Assembly: GCA_043784785.1 (NCBI GenBank)
Contig: JAYVXY010000132.1
Location: 2,931 to 66,930, forward strand
Origin: Aestuariivirga sp.
GTDB lineage: Bacteria; Pseudomonadota; Alphaproteobacteria; Rhizobiales; Aestuariivirgaceae
Length of the DNA: 64,000 nt
Direction: 5' to 3'
Shown here: positions 19,913 to 45,091 of the stretch, in pieces
Layout: each line of letters begins with the position of its first letter
How positions within the stretch are numbered: the first letter of the stretch is position 1
The notes under the pieces: generated by a model
The model's input: only the letters and a program-made list of their open reading frames with translations
The model's database searches: none
What the model was told of the DNA's origin: nothing
Translations under genes and position numbers: made by a program

Positions 19913-22900
19913 TTAATGAAAATCGCGAGACTTGGGGACTGTACGCACATTGCGGGGGTGGCGGTGTTTTGCAGCTTGTGACCGTATGGGAGGTGCCTCA
20001 TTGATATCTTCGGAGAGCCTGCCCAATTCATACGACCGATCAAAAATCCGCTCGGCCACCAGATGCACCACGCCCTCGGGGCTGCGTTGAACCTTGCCCT
20101 CCACAAGCAACAGCCTCCCGCCCATAATTTCGCGTCTGAAAGTTTCAACCAGTTTTGGCCAAACCACAACATTGGTGACACTGGCCTCATCACTCAAGGT
20201 GATGAAGACAACGCCAGCATCGCCGGGCATTTGCCGTGTGAGCACGATGCCGGCACAGGAAGCGCGCTGGCCATCCTTGGCTTTCCAGATTTCAGCACAA
20301 TTCAAAACGCCTTCACTTTTGAACAGGTCACGCAGGAAAAACATGAGATGGGCGCGCAACGACAGGCGCAGCATTTGATAATCGGCCAGAACATGCTCGC
20401 TTAAAGGTATGGGCGGCAGGGGTGCTATTTCTTCCTCGGGTTGCTCCTCCACATATTGCACGGCAAAGAGCGGTAAATCCTCATCATCAGGAATGCGGCG
20501 TACGGCCCAAAGAATTTCACGACGATCCTGGGCTATGGATTGAAAACAGTCAGCTTCGGCCAGAATGATAAGGGCACGTTTGGGCAATTTGGTCCGCCGC
20601 GCCACATCATCCACCGCGTCATAACCATTGTTCCGTTTGAACAGCAGCGTGTTGGCCCAGTTTTCGCGGAAACCATCAATCTGGCGGAAACCCAATCGAA
20701 GCGCCAGAGAACCGTCGTTGCAAAGCTCCAGCGTATTATCCCAATGACTGAAATTGACATCAACATGGCGGGTTTCAACATCATGCTCCACCGCATCGCG
20801 CACAATTTCAGCAGGTGCATAAAAGCCCATGGGCTGCGAATTCAAAAGGGCTGCAGCAAAGGCGGCGGGGTGATGCTTCTTGATCCAGGCCGAAATATAA
20901 ACCAGATGGGCAAAGCTGGCGGCATGGCTTTCTGGAAAGCCGTAAGAGCCAAAGCCTTCAATCTGTTTGAAGCAACGTTCGGCAAAATCCTGCTGATAAC
21001 CGCGCGTCACCATGCGACCCACAAACATGCCTTTAAAATTATCGATGGTGCCAACATTACGAAAGGTCGCCATTGCACGGCGTAAACCATTAGCATCTTC
21101 CGGTGTAAATTTTGCAGCCACAATGGCAAGCTTCATGGCCTGTTCTTGGAATAGCGGAACGCCCATTGTTTTGCTCAATACATTAAACAATTCATCGGCA
21201 GGGCCATGTTCTGGCGCAGGTGATGGGTATTCGACCTTTTCAACACCACTGCGCCGCCTGAGATAGGGGTGCACCATGTCACCCTGAATGGGGCCGGGGC
21301 GCACAATCGCAACTTCAATAACGAGATCGTAGAATTCCGCAGGTTTTAACCGTGGCAACATATTCATTTGTGCCCGGCTTTCCACTTGGAATACACCGAT
21401 GGCATCAGCTTTTTGCAGCATTTCATAAACTACGGGATCTTCGCGCTCCACATTGGCAAGATCAAAAGACTTACCCTCGTGAATGCGGATGAGATCAAAG
21501 GCTTTACGAATGCAGGTGAGCATGCCCAGCGCCAGCACATCTACCTTCATCATGCGCAAGGTATCAATGTCGTCCTTGTCCCACTCAATAAAATAGCGAT
21601 TCTCCATCGTGGCAGGGCCGATCGGCACACACTCGTCCAACCGATCTTGTGTCAGCACGAAGCCACCAACATGTTGTGAAAGATGGCGCGGAAAGCCGAT
21701 CAACTCATTGGCGGCCTTCATGGCGCGGGCCACCAGCTTGTTCGATGGATCGAGACGGCCCTGCCTGATGTGATTGTCCTTCACGCCACTGCCCCAACTA
21801 CCCCATATGCTGCTGGAGAGATTGGCGGTGATGTCCTCCGTTAAACCAAACACTTTACCCGCCTCGCGAATGGCACTGCGCGGGCGATAGCAGATCACTG
21901 TGGCCGTTAGCGCCGCACGGTGATGACCATAGCGCTTATATACATTCTGAATGACTTCCTCACGCCGCTCATGCTCGAAATCAACGTCAATGTCGGGTGG
22001 TTCCTTGCGCTCCTGGCTGATGAAGCGTTCAAATAAAAGATCAACCTGCATGGGATCGACGGCGGTTATCCCAAGCACATAGCATACGGCGGAATTGGCG
22101 GCCGAGCCGCGGCCCTGACAGAGAATGTTCTGGTTTCTGGCGAAACTTACGATGTCGTGAACAGTCAAAAAATAGGCGGCAATCTCCATCTCATTGATGA
22201 GTGCCAGTTCTTTCTCCAGCGTCGCTCGCACCTTGTCGGGAATAATGCCTGAATAGCGTGCTGTTGCGCCTTCCCAAGTGAGATTAGTCAAATGCTGTTG
22301 TGCCGTTTTTCCCTTTGGCACGGGCTCGTCGGGATAATTATATTTGAGCTGATCAAGAGTAAAGTTGATCAGGTCCGCAAACCGAATGGATTGTGCGATG
22401 GCGTCGGGTGCTTCACAGAAAAGCTCTGCCATTTCATCTGGCGATTTCAAATGACGCTCGGCATTGGCCTCAAGCAGGCGGCCTGCTTCATTGAGTGTTG
22501 TGTGCTCGCGAATGCAGGTTACAACATCGTGGAGTTCGCGGCGTTCGGGACAATGATAGAGCACATCATTGGTGGCCAGTAATGGAACGCCGATTGTATC
22601 GCTCAGGCATTTAAAATGCGCCAAGCGCCTTTGATCATCTCCATGATGCGGCATGGATACGCCAAGCCATATTCTATCGGGTGCGGCTTGATTTATGAAT
22701 TGCAAAAGCGATTTAAGATCAGAACCTGTATAATCATATTTGTTTTCACCCAAACCCGTCATTCCCGCGAAAGCGGGAATCCATGTTTGCGAAGAACTCG
22801 TCGTTGAAAGGAAGCTGGCTTCCCGTTTTCGCGGGAATGACGAGGTGAGAGGAGCGGGAATGGCGGGTTGGGGGGAGTGGGAGAATGACGGTTCAATCTC

Positions 22901-23377
22901 TTTGGATTCGCTTTGCCCAGAGAGATTTAAATTCTTGTTCCAGAATTTTTGCGGGCCATCAGTGCTCGTGACGGGCACATCAGGATGCTGTGGCATAACC
23001 ACCAGCAGCATTCCTTCTTGCCACTTTAAGAGATCGCTCAAAGCCAGATAACAATCCCCTTTGGGCGCACGCAATTTTCCGATACTGAGCAAGCGGCAAA
23101 GCCGACCATAAGCAGCCCTATCAGTTGGATAGACGAGAATGTCAGGCGTGCCGTCGATAAAAATCAGGCGACAACCCACTAAAAGTTTCGGCTTATCGCC
23201 CTTGATGTCTTGATGGGCCGCATAGGCCCGCACCACGCCTGCTAACGAGTTACGATCAGCTATGCCGATGGCAGCAAGCCCAAGCTCGGTTGCCGTTTGC
23301 ACCAACTCCTTGGGATGTGATGCGCCGCGCAGAAACGAATAATTCGTCGTCACCGCGATTTCGGCATAGGCGCTCAT
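19913..23377 (-). CDS. dnaE2: Error-prone DNA polymerase DnaE2 (ImuC), with about 90-aa insertion in the PHP domain
   Basis: TNYSFLRGASHP, GRGSAANS, PPDIDVDFEH, GFPRHLSQHVGGF, C-terminal SRDFH; start codon overlaps imuB stop (ATGA). Confidence 0.97.
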   Translation of the reverse strand: MSAYAEIAVTTNYSFLRGASHPKELVQTATELGLAAIGIADRNSLAGVVRAYAAHQDIKGDKPKLLVGCRLIFIDGTPDILVYPTDRAAYGRLCRLLSIGKLRAPKGDCYLALSDLLKWQEGMLLVVMPQHPDVPVTSTDGPQKFWNKNLNLSGQSESKEIEPSFSHSPQPAIPAPLTSSFPRKREASFLSTTSSSQTWIPAFAGMTGLGENKYDYTGSDLKSLLQFINQAAPDRIWLGVSMPHHGDDQRRLAHFKCLSDTIGVPLLATNDVLYHCPERRELHDVVTCIREHTTLNEAGRLLEANAERHLKSPDEMAELFCEAPDAIAQSIRFADLINFTLDQLKYNYPDEPVPKGKTAQQHLTNLTWEGATARYSGIIPDKVRATLEKELALINEMEIAAYFLTVHDIVSFARNQNILCQGRGSAANSAVCYVLGITAVDPMQVDLLFERFISQERKEPPDIDVDFEHERREEVIQNVYKRYGHHRAALTATVICYRPRSAIREAGKVFGLTEDITANLSSSIWGSWGSGVKDNHIRQGRLDPSNKLVARAMKAANELIGFPRHLSQHVGGFVLTQDRLDECVPIGPATMENRYFIEWDKDDIDTLRMMKVDVLALGMLTCIRKAFDLIRIHEGKSFDLANVEREDPVVYEMLQKADAIGVFQVESRAQMNMLPRLKPAEFYDLVIEVAIVRPGPIQGDMVHPYLRRRSGVEKVEYPSPAPEHGPADELFNVLSKTMGVPLFQEQAMKLAIVAAKFTPEDANGLRRAMATFRNVGTIDNFKGMFVGRMVTRGYQQDFAERCFKQIEGFGSYGFPESHAASFAHLVYISAWIKKHHPAAFAAALLNSQPMGFYAPAEIVRDAVEHDVETRHVDVNFSHWDNTLELCNDGSLALRLGFRQIDGFRENWANTLLFKRNNGYDAVDDVARRTKLPKRALIILAEADCFQSIAQDRREILWAVRRIPDDEDLPLFAVQYVEEQPEEEIAPLPPIPLSEHVLADYQMLRLSLRAHLMFFLRDLFKSEGVLNCAEIWKAKDGQRASCAGIVLTRQMPGDAGVVFITLSDEASVTNVVVWPKLVETFRREIMGGRLLLVEGKVQRSPEGVVHLVAERIFDRSYELGRLSEDINEAPPIRSQAAKHRHPRNVRTVPKSRDFH
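22757..22842. repeat. Palindromic dRS3/RPE-4-like element inside dnaE2
   Basis: Perfect 16-bp terminal inverted repeat CGTCATTCCCGCGAAA (22757-22772) / TTTCGCGGGAATGACG (22827-22842); each arm is a hairpin of ATTCCC-N8-GGGAAT type; reads SFPRKRE...WIPAFAGMT in the dnaE2 frame. Confidence 0.9.
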
Positions 23378-24921
23378 GCAAACAACCCATGCAGGAACCA
23401 TTGCGAATTCACTTCACTTTGATAAAGCCAATAACGCCTGCCTTCATCATCTTCCATGCGGAAATAGTCACGCGTGGGCTGTGGTGTCTCATGGCGCCAC
23501 CATTCCATGGCGATGCGCTCGGGGCCTTCACGCTGGATCACCTTATGGTTTGCTCGTCGCCAAATGAATTGTGCTGTTGTGCCAAAACTGATTGGCTCTG
23601 GTCTGGCAAACATGCGCAGGGGCCGGCGTGGGGCGTTGCCTGTCTGGTGCAGTTTCTTCCATAAAAACTTCGTTGTGCCGGCATATTGTGCGGGCACGGT
23701 AACAAACGATTTTTCCGGAATATGGGTGTTGTTGAGCTGAAAACCTAAAATGCGATTGGGGCCAAAGCGCGTGGCCAAACGGTCGACCAGAAAACCGATC
23801 TCCTTTTGGGCTGCCAAATCAGAATCCAATTCGACGAACTCCGCATTAAAGCGTTGAACCTCGGTGGCCGACAGCCGGATCAGATCAAAGCCGAAGCCTG
23901 GGTCAAGCGGATCGTTGAGAACATCCAGCTTTTCGTTAAACAGGCGTATGATGATTTCAGGATCGCGGGTGGCCATTGCCAGCGTAATGGCGATGCGCCT
24001 GACGGCACCATCGGCGCGAAAGAATAGTGCTTCTAAACGCCTCGCCCCCTGACCCTGTTTTTGCATCGTCTCGGATAATGCAGCGCTTAAAGATTTCAAC
24101 GTAGCGCTGATCAGATCATCAGTGGCGATAGGTTCGGGAAAGCCTTGCTCATGCCAATATTCGGCGCGCGGCAAGCGCGGTGAGATCGGCTTTCCACCCT
24201 GCCCTAAGATTTCGTCCAAGGTGGAAAGTGTTGCTGCCCCAAAGCGCGCGGTGATTTCGGAACGCTTGCGGCTGGCCACTTGCCCCACAGTTTTTAGCCC
24301 GGCACGGCGAAACGCATGGGTGATCACAACATCGAGGCCCAGCGCCTCAACGGGCAAGGGCTTGGTGGCTTTTTCTTCCCCATCCGGAGCAATGACGACA
24401 CCATCTCTATAACGAGCCAAAGCCCGAGCGGCGGCGGCCGTTCCGGCCATGGCGGCGCGCACAGCCAAATTTTGCGCTTCGAGTTTGTTGCAGATTTTAT
24501 CCAGCATCGCCTGCTCGCCACCAAAAAGATGAGAGGCACCTGTGACATCAAGCAAAAGCCTGTTGGGGCCATCCAGCGCGACATGCGGCGTGAAGCGGTC
24601 ACACCAGTCGGCGATGCGGATGAGCAATTGTGCATCGGCTGTTTCATCAGCTGTTACCACTCTTAGTGAAGGCAACATGGCGCGGGCATTGGCCAATGGC
24701 TGTCCAAAGCTAAGACCCAATGAGGTTGCTTTGCGGTCCACAGCCTGCAAGGCCATGGCATTTTTAACCTTCGCCACCACCACCAAGGGTGGGGCTGCGA
24801 CCATTGCCTTTTCCAGGCGTTGTAATCGATCAGTCGAAAGCCTTGGAAACCACAAGGCCACGATGCGCCTTGACTGTTTCGTTGATCGTTCCTGGGGTTT
24901 TGAAGATACGCTCATCACCAC
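23374..24921 (-). CDS. imuB: Y-family polymerase-like mutasome protein ImuB
   Basis: FTPHVALDG, LLLDVTGASHLFGGE, C-terminal GPERIAMEWW..RDYF..YWLY..WFLHGLF. Confidence 0.94.
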   Translation of the reverse strand: MVMSVSSKPQERSTKQSRRIVALWFPRLSTDRLQRLEKAMVAAPPLVVVAKVKNAMALQAVDRKATSLGLSFGQPLANARAMLPSLRVVTADETADAQLLIRIADWCDRFTPHVALDGPNRLLLDVTGASHLFGGEQAMLDKICNKLEAQNLAVRAAMAGTAAAARALARYRDGVVIAPDGEEKATKPLPVEALGLDVVITHAFRRAGLKTVGQVASRKRSEITARFGAATLSTLDEILGQGGKPISPRLPRAEYWHEQGFPEPIATDDLISATLKSLSAALSETMQKQGQGARRLEALFFRADGAVRRIAITLAMATRDPEIIIRLFNEKLDVLNDPLDPGFGFDLIRLSATEVQRFNAEFVELDSDLAAQKEIGFLVDRLATRFGPNRILGFQLNNTHIPEKSFVTVPAQYAGTTKFLWKKLHQTGNAPRRPLRMFARPEPISFGTTAQFIWRRANHKVIQREGPERIAMEWWRHETPQPTRDYFRMEDDEGRRYWLYQSEVNSQWFLHGLFA

Positions 24922-25618
24922 TCCACTCCATCATCCACTTACCCATTTGCCCGTGCCGATTGCGTAAAAGCTCCACCTGAAAAACCGGCTGGCCCCAATT
25001 TTCGCCTTGTTGCAATGAAGGCGTAGCGCGCACAAGCCAGCGTGTTTCAGCAGTGCTGAAGCTGGGCTCTGCAGCAAAACGCAGCAAAAATGCGGTAACG
25101 GATTTTTGTGCGCAAGCCAGTGTCAAACGCCTGCTCGCCGTCATATCAAGATTTTTTGGACGACCGGGAATCTCGATGACCACTGCACCAAGAGCAGCAC
25201 AGGAGAGCGCATCATTGGCAGCGCGCAAACCATCATCGGCATTGGCCACGCAAAGCAGCAGCAGGCGCTGCGGCTCAAAGCCCAATTCAACAAGGCCAGC
25301 AGCAGAAAGTGAAGCAAATTCGTTGATCGAAAAATCTTGCGCTATCCACAATACATGCTTGGTTTCAGCCACGCGCATAACGAGTCCTGCTGTGAAACCC
25401 GTGGCGGCGGTTTCGTGGCCAATAGATGCGAACACTTCATGCAAACATCCGCGTTCAAGCCCTCCATTCAGGCATAAATCGGCAAGGGCATGTCCAAGCG
25501 GAGCGCGGGTCGCAATTTTCTCAAGTCCTGGTTTTGCGAGAACCGCCCGAAGAGCGGTTAAGCGATCACGTATGGATCGCAGATCTACCGGCTGTGAAAA
25601 GTGAAGGGTTGATTGCAT
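24830..25618 (-). CDS. imuA: RecA-like mutasome protein ImuA
   Basis: GGLERGCLHE, SRRLTLA, AETRWLVRA, ELLRNRHG; first gene of the imu cassette; start placed at ATG 25618 because the ORF-track start lies inside the LexA box. Confidence 0.88.
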   Translation of the reverse strand: MQSTLHFSQPVDLRSIRDRLTALRAVLAKPGLEKIATRAPLGHALADLCLNGGLERGCLHEVFASIGHETAATGFTAGLVMRVAETKHVLWIAQDFSINEFASLSAAGLVELGFEPQRLLLLCVANADDGLRAANDALSCAALGAVVIEIPGRPKNLDMTASRRLTLACAQKSVTAFLLRFAAEPSFSTAETRWLVRATPSLQQGENWGQPVFQVELLRNRHGQMGKWMMEWSGDERIFKTPGTINETVKAHRGLVVSKAFD

Positions 25619-25630
25619 AGTGGCATGCAA

Positions 25631-25645
25631 GAACAAAACTAGAAC
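25631..25645. promoter_or_regulatory. Alphaproteobacterial LexA (SOS) box
   Basis: GAACAAAACTAGAAC = GAAC-N7-GAAC, 13 bp upstream of the proposed imuA start. Confidence 0.88.
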
Positions 25646-44294: not shown

Positions 44295-45091
44295 GCCTGC
44301 AACCAGTTCTCGTCAGGTTCCGGCAGGGGAATAGCGGCAATGAGAGCTTTGGTGAAATCGCTTTTGGGCGCGCGGAATGTTTCAGCGGTTTCGCCTGCTT
44401 CTACCACTTCACCAGAGCGCATGATGATGATGCGATCACAAATATGACGCACCACGGATAGGTCATGACTGATAAAGGCCAGCGACAAACCAAACTCGGA
44501 GCGAAGGCCCTTGAGCAAATCCAGAACCTGAGCCTGCGTTGAAACATCAAGGCCCGAGACAATTTCGTCGGCCACCACAAAATCTGGTTTCAGCGCAATG
44601 GCGCGGGCTATACCCACACGTTGGCGCTGTCCACCGGAAAGCTGATGTGGATAACGTTGCAATGCCGAGCTGGGCAGGCCAACGCGATCCAAAATAGACG
44701 CGAGTGTCTTTTCCCCAGCTTCAAGTCCATGAAGCTGCATGGCACCCTTTAGTATTCTACCGACAGTGTGGCGCGGGTTGAGCGAGGATTGAGGATCCTG
44801 AAATATCATCTGCATCCGGCGGCGCAGGGGCTTCATTTGGGCATGCGGCAGATGGGTGATGTCTGTGCCGTCAAAACTCAGGTGGCCTTCAGTCGGTTCA
44901 TAGAGCCTGAGAAGCGTGCGGCCCAGCGAGGTTTTGCCTGATCCTGATTCTCCGACTATCCCTACCGTCTCGCCCCGCGCCACGCTGATTGAAACATTTT
45001 TGAGAATGCGCAATGTCCGGCGCTTGCCGAACAACACATGATGGCCCATGTCGGGCACGTCGAGGCACAGGTTTTTGGCTTCAATCAACAT
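44291..45091 (-). CDS. Peptide/nickel-type ABC ATPase (DppF-like)
   Basis: GESGSGKT, FQDPQSSLNP, LSGGQRQR. Confidence 0.93.
   Translation of the reverse strand: MLIEAKNLCLDVPDMGHHVLFGKRRTLRILKNVSISVARGETVGIVGESGSGKTSLGRTLLRLYEPTEGHLSFDGTDITHLPHAQMKPLRRRMQMIFQDPQSSLNPRHTVGRILKGAMQLHGLEAGEKTLASILDRVGLPSSALQRYPHQLSGGQRQRVGIARAIALKPDFVVADEIVSGLDVSTQAQVLDLLKGLRSEFGLSLAFISHDLSVVRHICDRIIIMRSGEVVEAGETAETFRAPKSDFTKALIAAIPLPEPDENWLQA

Follow-up and report, generated by a model that had tools for sequence, protein, structure and literature searches.

The gene dnaE2, encoding an error-prone DNA polymerase III alpha-like protein, is carried on the minus strand of the 64-kb stretch of Aestuariivirga sp. 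DNA analysed here (hereafter the window, meaning the whole stretch at its full length), and it contains an extra coding segment in the linker of its PHP domain. This insert is very probably a cluster of CGTC-1 repetitive extragenic palindromic (REP) units, composed of one intact dimer and two decayed heads, which is tolerated in frame as a selfish passenger of DnaE2. The original prediction had likewise proposed a selfish palindrome tolerated in a loop of an SOS mutagenic polymerase, and the hypervariability of the loop and the very many relatives of the element agree with it. In-frame REPs of this sort were already described in 2013, with dnaE2 among their host genes (Di Nocera, De Gregorio & Rocco 2013, BMC Genomics 14:522; PMC3733652), and the case in the window is a new example and no new kind of element. 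The recurrent use of one linker and a conservation of the REP arms that does not look neutral are modestly new. At the level of annotation, the odd Ser/Pro-rich segment of the protein is REP-derived and represents no novel domain.

Anatomy of the 86-bp palindrome

The element occupies positions 22757-22842 of the window and is an intact head-to-head dimer of CGTC-1 REP units, a REPIN-like palindrome of 86 bp whose architecture is the one observed in 124 exact dimers of other genomes. Its two arms (22757-22783 and 22816-22842) comprise 27 nt each, with 93% complementarity between them and perfect pairing over the outer 16 nt (CGTCATTCCCGCGAAA), in agreement with the 86-bp element with perfect 16-bp terminal inverted repeats that had been announced. 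REP unit A (22757-22783, plus strand) is composed of the CGTC tag, the stem ATTCCCGC, the loop GAAA, the stem GCGGGAAT and the tail CCA. It is canonical at 27 of 27 positions, with 8 of 8 pairs formed in its stem, and the coding strand reads WIPAFAGMT. REP unit B (CGTCATTCCCGCGAAAACGGGAAGCCA on the minus strand, 22816-22842) is canonical at 25 of 27 positions and encodes SFPRKREA; its stem, ATTCCCGC-GAAA-ACGGGAAG, has 6 of 8 pairs in the window and 7 of 8 in a strain that is 99% identical (contig L001), where GGGAATCC stands at this position. A unique spacer of 32 nt (22784-22815) lies between the two units. The CGTC tags are found at both outer ends (22757-22760 on the plus strand and 22839-22842 when read on the minus strand), and the CCA tail follows both hairpins (22781-22783, and TGG at 22816-22818 on the plus strand).

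Two hairpins of the type ATTCCC-N8-GGGAAT had been predicted. The first is exact (22761-22780), but the second (22819-22838) begins with CTTCCC and thus has one mismatch, L001 having ATTCCC there. The dimer is read in frame as SSFPRKREASFLSTTSSSQTWIPAFAGMT within dnaE2, which confirms the translation SFPRKRE...WIPAFAGMT. The 25-mer GTCATTCCCGCGAAAGCGGGAATCC has 2 occurrences, against 0.00 expected from shuffled sequences. The fold of the dimer strand is much more stable than that of shuffles, with -35.4 kcal/mol when computed for DNA (z = -6.3) and -53 kcal/mol when computed for RNA (z = -6.6), and the mRNA strand can form a stem in which about 25 positions pair and two mismatches lie inside.

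The CGTC-1 REPs are characterized by a CGTC tag, an 8-bp stem beginning with AT, a 4-nt loop and a CCA tail, and are mostly found as head-to-head dimers of units 20-100 bp apart; CGTC-1 corresponds to dRS3 of Neisseria and to RPE-6 of Rickettsia, whereas RPE-4 is CGTC-4, with a 9-bp stem and a 5-nt loop (PMC3733652). All these characters are found in the window: both units carry the CGTC tag (for which TGTC and CCTC are admitted as variants), the stem of 8 bp with A-T at pairs 1 and 2, the loop of 4 nt and the CCA tail, and they stand head to head with their tags outside and 32 nt between them. The dRS3 core ATTCCC-N8-GGGAAT is present once exactly and once with a single mismatch. The element had been called dRS3/RPE-4-like; the first half of this name stands, since CGTC-1 is the same family as dRS3 and RPE-6, whereas RPE-4 is ruled out by the stem of 8 bp and the loop of 4 nt.

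Other assignments were considered and rejected. The tag is CGTC instead of GTAG, which excludes the GTAG-type REPINs associated with REP-associated tyrosine transposases (RAYT). Inverted repeats are present as in a classical miniature inverted-repeat transposable element (MITE), but the family makes no target-site duplication. The anatomy fits neither an intein, an intron, an integron attC site nor a CRISPR, and fits CGTC-1 exactly. A paper on MITEs of Coxiella (PMC5896051) does not concern CGTC-1. No match to Rfam was obtained at gathering thresholds in the whole 64-kb window, and a permissive scan of positions 22600-23000 gave sub-threshold hairpin matches to microRNA models only.

DnaE2 is named among the REP-tagged proteins in the 2013 study, with a CGTC-1 group beginning SFPRKRES at residues 166-246 of Swit_1119 from S. 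wittichii, a CGTC-1 at residues 175-203 of ELI_05390 from E. litoralis and a CGTC-3 dimer at residues 128-157 of RPE_1827 from R. palustris (PMC3733652). To judge by the residue numbers alone, these three inserts fit the same N-terminal linker as in the window. A protein search with the insert peptide of Swit_1119, made to align the S. wittichii case, returned no candidate.

The extra segment in the PHP-domain linker

An in-frame insert of about 90 codons had been predicted between LVVMP and DLKSLLQ. The insert is indeed in frame, but it is smaller, as the first 25 codons or so after LVVMP (QHPDVPVTSTDGPQKFWNKNLNLS) are conserved in 120 orthologues. Counted from FWN to WLG, the window protein has 95 residues and the shortest close orthologues (P0004 and P0003) have 36-39, which gives a net excess of 56-59 codons. 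The lineage-specific extra coding segment in this variable linker corresponds roughly to positions 22721-22918 on the minus strand (about G162 to S227; GQSESKEIEPSFSHSPQPAIPAPLTSSFPRKREASFLSTTSSSQTWIPAFAGMTGLGENKYDYTGS) and contains the 86 bp of the intact dimer and about 48 bp of remnant heads. The Escherichia coli Pol III alpha subunit aligns only to residues 12-109 and 232-354 of DnaE2, and the insert therefore lies inside the PHP domain. An AlphaFold2 model gives residues 160-225 a predicted local distance difference test score (pLDDT) of 22-36, between a confident strand (131-136) and a confident helix (226-239), and the linker holding the insert is thus predicted to be, probably, a disordered surface loop.

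The length of this loop is hypervariable. It ranges from 28 to 87 residues in the close orthologues, and no conserved segment as long as that of the window was found among them. Among 150 diverse DnaE2 representatives, 74 could be anchored and mostly have a loop of less than 20 residues; CGTC-1 peptides occupy this loop in one of the 150 (P0183). Three orthologues (P0016, P0064 and P0112) hold other palindromes in the loop, with folding energies of -108 to -124 kcal/mol. With at least two further palindrome types in the same place, at least three repeat families have used the linker within one clade.

The loops of these three orthologues (L130:3001-6399, L131:3001-6483 and L132:3001-6360, respectively) contain G/C-rich hairpin pairs unrelated to the CGTC REP. 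Their peptides include VGRVRVG...PSPQGGGR, LPPLGEGARRADEGL and LIRLSATFS...EKG, and the palindrome types of P0064 and P0112 have common modules in permuted order.

As the insert interrupts a conserved domain, we considered that the segment could be removed after transcription or translation, in the manner of an intron or an intein, or that dnaE2 could be a decaying pseudogene, although nothing specific favours either. The open reading frame is intact, and the set of Pfam domains is complete (PHP, DNA_pol3_alpha with its NTPase, finger, HHH_6 and OB). The catalytic motifs PDIDVDF and KVD are invariant, in accordance with the prediction that the frame and the downstream catalytic motifs are intact. 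From a tally of the variant list, about three quarters of the differences between dnaE2 and that of a strain about 95% identical fall at third codon positions. The segment has merely about 57 codons and shows no intein motif and no match to an Rfam family. In Rickettsia, the RPE inserts studied by Ogata et al. are reportedly retained in mRNA and protein. The 2013 study, for its part, cites in vivo expression of RPE-1-decorated proteins (PMC3733652). Both forms of this explanation are thus regarded as extremely improbable.

History of the locus in orthologues

The history of the locus was reconstructed from the DNA of eight close orthologues, using an alignment of the loop and a neighbour-joining tree obtained with the loop masked. 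Full dimers in another reading frame (VIPAKAG...DSRLRGNDE) are found in P0006 and P0018, and full but decayed copies in P0009 and P0002. Only the left half is kept in P0012 and only the right half in P0010, and no REP trace is detected in P0003 and P0004. In the tree all REP traces fall within one clade, and the loops of the outgroup have 28-33 residues; the confinement of the traces indicates that the first insertion is older than this clade. The alignments and the tree show that a REP dimer was already present in the loop of the common ancestor of the clade and was later decayed (P0002, P0009), half-deleted (P0010, P0012, P0037/41) or lost (P0003). The insertion is ancient and common to sister lineages, not specific to one genome, and its sharing, intact or decayed, by a clade of metagenome-assembled genomes (MAGs) related to Hyphomicrobiales and Aestuariivirga is a new observation. 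Eight metagenomes contain the locus, and a search of them for an allele with the empty site found none; the strain about 95% identical also has both REPs. The clade offers a dated decay series of a single REP insertion across related genomes, from intact to decayed, half-deleted and lost, and the window shows to what extent selfish palindromes can decorate a conserved polymerase with its frame and its catalytic motifs kept.

Two degenerate heads on the minus strand had also been noticed, and both are present. Head 2 (CGCCATTCCCGC, read PAIPA) lies at 22854-22865 and head 1 (CGTCATTCTCCCAC, read PSFSH) at 22877-22890, and they precede the intact dimer on the coding strand. Taken with the 11 nt upstream of it, head 2 shows 87% inverse complementarity to the right end of the dimer and its flank (22746-22768). 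The junction of head 2, CAACC|CG.CATTCC ('SPQPAIPAP'), corresponds to the one on the left of the element in P0012, P0006 and P0009 ('SPQPVIPAK'), and since both junction and flank agree with these three orthologues, head 2 is attributed to the old element. Each head follows a C-rich 11-mer, which creates a period of 23 nt in which head 1 is the third member of the series; the direct repeat D1 (22831-22853 and 22854-22876) has 78% identity.

The immediate flanks of the dimer in the window are ACCT and GGTT. Like those of the family in general, the wider flanks are C-rich on the left (22843-22853) and G-rich on the right (22746-22756). The right flank GGTTTGGG shares 8 identical nt with the flank of a dimer in a Sphingomonadales MAG (L054:2949-2960), a similarity that hints that the mobile unit or its target may extend past the CGTC tag.

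These remnants may be explained in two ways. Repeated insertion, as suggested in the original prediction, is plausible: the canonical dimer of the window would be a renewed copy, arisen by re-insertion or by conversion from another REP, beside the older decayed heads. Alternatively, a single ancient insertion may have left the intact dimer as the original element, the two upstream heads deriving from tandem duplications of 'flank + head' with a period of 23 nt. The repeat D1 and the third unit at the same period are expected from such duplications. MAFFT aligns the window dimer with those of P0002, P0006, P0009 and P0018, the similarity of its spacer to those of P0009 and P0002 is weak but positive (z = 1.9), and the right-flank motif GACG-GTT-G is common to the window and P0018. 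On the other hand, the elements of P0002, P0006 and P0018 abut the DLKSLL helix whereas 12 extra codons separate the window dimer from it, the window dimer is canonical while the arms of the sister lineage P0002 are heavily decayed (38 of 54 positions canonical), and a duplication of 23 nt shifts the frame and thus needs several compensating events. We regard a single insertion as possible, though clearly the less probable course of events.

A further alternative concerns the preservation of the arms. The four-fold degenerate sites are saturated between the window, P0006 and P0018 (identity 0.46-0.48), whereas the REP arms of these three are 80-87% identical and canonical at 45-52 of 54 positions, and the spacers cannot be aligned. 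Selection could therefore keep the REP hairpins as a cis-acting structure, for which the proposed roles are a double-stranded RNA target, a brake on translation that limits the mutagenic polymerase, or a site on the DNA recognized by a REP-binding protein. The left unit of P0018 (L128:1180-1199) shows the stem ATCCCCGC/GCGGGGAT in place of ATTCCCGC/GCGGGAAT, a change on both sides that preserves the pairing. The possible mRNA stem and its folding energy as RNA point in the same direction, as does the confinement of all REP units found in 154 kb of clade DNA to this loop; in some species a REP-tagged repair gene is the sole REP-modified coding sequence (PMC3733652). Nevertheless, the element is decayed or deleted in P0002, P0009, P0010, P0012, P0037/41 and P0003, all of which retain the gene, and other orthologues have unrelated palindromes or nothing, CGTC-1 being rare among the diverse representatives. 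Re-insertion or conversion would explain the near-canonical arms equally well, and the intact lineages are only three or four. Maintenance by selection, although the main alternative, is therefore considered unlikely.

CGTC-1 dimers in other genomes and in metagenomes

An exact-pattern scan for dimers, with one genome per species, recovered at least 120 stretches, and 124 dimers were analysed among the matches listed (L002-L121); the motif of the window thus has numerous relatives in named genomes. The taxa represented are Alpha-, Beta- and Gammaproteobacteria, Desulfobulbaceae, Acidobacteriota, Dehalococcoidia, Verrucomicrobia, Elusimicrobia, Omnitrophota, Binatia, candidate-phyla bacteria and others. 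The listed dimers measure 64-94 bp and have variable spacers. Their tag base is C in 65% and T in 23%, with flanks that are C-rich on the left and G-rich on the right. No target-site duplication accompanies them, the flanking direct repeats being at the level of chance (for k=4, 0 observed and 0.37 expected). A target duplication at the insertion site in dnaE2, which had been proposed for definition by alignment, is consequently not to be found, since the family makes none. The spacer of the window has a best identity of 0.74 with the 124 listed spacers, which we call near to the means of the shuffled controls (0.54-0.61), and no exact match to a 24-mer of this spacer, scanned to find other copies of the same dimer, was obtained in the JGI metagenome contigs. 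Elsewhere, dimers whose spacers are at least 80% identical are met again at unrelated loci, within one genome or in related ones, and a dimer can therefore spread as a unit.

An identical arm of 23 nt is observed in far more phyla than the five of 2013, with MAG contamination as a possible cause. Its carriers include complete chromosomes of Dehalococcoidia as well as Omnitrophota, Elusimicrobia, Binatia and a Falkowbacteria MAG.

Five of the six reading frames of the unit have no stop codon (RHSRESGNP, VIPAKAGI, SFPRKRES, WIPAFAGMT and DSRFRGND) and the sixth contains a TGA, so that survival in frame is easy. Among the 124 listed dimers, 15 (about one in eight) lie in long open frames, several of them in clearly real genes. 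Likely in-frame cases in real genes of other phyla are found in a membrane protein (L024:3114-3184), a molybdopterin oxidoreductase (L087:825-907), a methyltransferase-like protein (L111:5358-5432) and the N-terminus of a Clp-like ATPase (L103:429-500). A tblastn search of DnaE2 against the 120 REP loci suggested L067 as a second dnaE2 case, but on inspection the match proved spurious, being caused by low-complexity sequence next to an adenosine-deaminase-like gene.

In the metagenomes of the source sediment, the summed contig word depth varies between runs, with 8,000-35,000 on positions 22744-22780 and 3-60 on the flanks, and the words of the REP unit are several hundred to several thousand times as deep as those of the flanks. 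The contigs pile up on REP unit A and have loose ends at 22756/7 and 22784-88. Both the depth peak and the position of the loose ends at the limits of the unit indicate that the repeated unit is the single REP and not the spacer. At such a high-copy repeat, contigs could have been wrongly joined, and the Logan contigs of all eight runs indeed break within the REP units (22782/22759 and 22815). However, L001, which is a separately catalogued ENA assembly contig, has the same structure, contigs of the strain about 95% identical end and restart at the same REP positions, the frame is preserved through 198 bp, and relatives from other samples have homologous elements at the same site. An assembly artefact is therefore judged very improbable.

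Arrival and persistence of the element

The CGTC tag beside the hairpin and the lack of duplications suggest that the element would have arrived by REP mobilisation, as a single-strand cut-and-paste catalysed by an HUH/RAYT-like enzyme. It may then have persisted in a loop that tolerates almost any peptide, in a gene that would normally be repressed, and its peptide is presumably translated as a flexible Ser/Pro-rich loop devoid of a function of its own.

Several points weigh against this interpretation. For CGTC REPs, no dedicated transposase is known, and neither is a RAYT gene with such REPs at its sides (PMC3733652). The 64-kb window has no further copy of the REP motif, and in the 154 kb sampled from the window and its relatives all the CGTC-1 units detected lie in the dnaE2 loop; one intergenic CGTC-1 dimer is nevertheless present in an Aestuariivirga MAG. 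A local source of a renewed copy is therefore not shown. The spacer of the window resembles those of the relatives only weakly (z = 1-2), and the dimer may be the same old element or one renewed by re-insertion or conversion. Near-canonical arms in three deeply diverged lineages, despite saturation, are not what a pure neutral passenger would predict. The full-length AlphaFold2 model is poor (mean pLDDT 56) and was used solely to contrast the insert with its flanks, and a search for RNA runs containing the region found no run.

A bolder proposal is that palindromic repeats preferentially land, or are retained, in the PHP linker of DnaE2 and that the REP hairpins of this linker are actively maintained. 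It draws on the presence of at least three unrelated palindrome families in one loop within one clade and of CGTC REPs at similar dnaE2 residues in three other alphaproteobacterial genera, on the canonical arms despite saturated synonymous sites and on the restriction of the REPs sampled in the clade to this locus. We consider this proposal doubtful. If true, it would mean either a cis-regulatory hairpin on the SOS mutasome or the homing of REPs to an existing scar during the exposure of single-stranded DNA associated with SOS. If the maintenance of the hairpins were selective, REP elements would be tied to the control of error-prone SOS polymerases. The overrepresentation of REPs published for replication and repair genes hints at such a link.

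The host gene and its SOS cassette

The longest open reading frame of dnaE2 has 1162 codons (19913-23401, minus strand, start at 23401). The real start is probably at 23377 (MSAYAEIAV), because the consensus of the orthologues begins at this motif and the gene call in L001 agrees; the coding sequence would then be 19913-23377, with 1154 codons, and its start overlaps the stop of imuB as ATGA. This gene is identified by the open reading frame list and its translation, by Pfam and by the 120 orthologues collected, which have 72-99% identity and several of which are named 'error-prone DNA polymerase'.

Directly upstream in the cassette lies an imuB-like gene for a Y-family polymerase homologue (23374-24921, minus strand; Pfam IMS and IMS_C), and the gene order is unchanged in all relatives. 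The first gene is imuA-like (24830-25618, minus strand), encodes 262 amino acids without a Pfam match and is recognized from the open reading frame list and from the gene order in L001. The motif GTTC-N7-GTTC is the consensus of the alphaproteobacterial LexA box. A candidate box of this type is found at 25631-25645 on the minus strand, 13-27 nt upstream of the imuA-like start (25618). The window contains 2 matches to this motif against 1.26 expected, and it is thus the position alone that is meaningful; the second match is at 44306-44320. With the Pol III alpha-like domains, the preceding imuB- and imuA-like genes and the candidate LexA box upstream, the locus has the predicted organization of an ordinary SOS mutagenesis cassette imuA-imuB-dnaE2.

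The metagenome contig depth also rises 3- to 100-fold over 22411-22484 and 23299-23372, two stretches of dnaE2 away from the REP. Presumably, conserved parts of the dnaE2 genes of other organisms in the community cross-map here.

Comparison with known systems

Classical MITEs such as Correia and the Coxiella elements QMITE1/2 resemble the dimer in being short and non-autonomous, in having terminal inverted repeats and in sometimes extending or interrupting open reading frames. However, the MITEs derived from DDE transposons make target-site duplications, contrary to the CGTC-1 dimers. The GTAG REPINs mobilized with RAYT are closer, being also formed by two inverted REPs and a short spacer that move as one unit, with a tetranucleotide tag beside the hairpin and no target duplication; they differ by their tag, GTAG instead of CGTC.

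In Neisseria, dRS3 elements are also integration sites for filamentous prophages, a feature not seen in the window. They have the same core and belong to the same CGTC-1 family, but are mostly found in large intergenic mosaic arrays (PMC3733652), and such arrays were not seen in the window. The Rickettsia elements RPE-6 and RPE-4 are palindromes inserted in frame into housekeeping genes, among them dnaE, uvrB and uvrC. RPE-6 is CGTC-1 and encodes the same peptides as the element of the window, whereas RPE-4 encodes the CGTC-4 peptides VIPWLDHGI and DTVVKPRYD.

The closest system is the CGTC-1 family itself, with an identical unit anatomy, the head-to-head dimer and the peptides SFPRKRES, VIPAKAGI, WIPAFAGMT and DSRFRGND, all tabulated in the 2013 study (PMC3733652). 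That paper does not present the loop as a place where REPs land repeatedly, nor does it follow the age and stepwise decay of one insertion, and the element of the window differs from its published relatives by a new host lineage, composed of uncultured Hyphomicrobiales and Aestuariivirga-like sediment MAGs.

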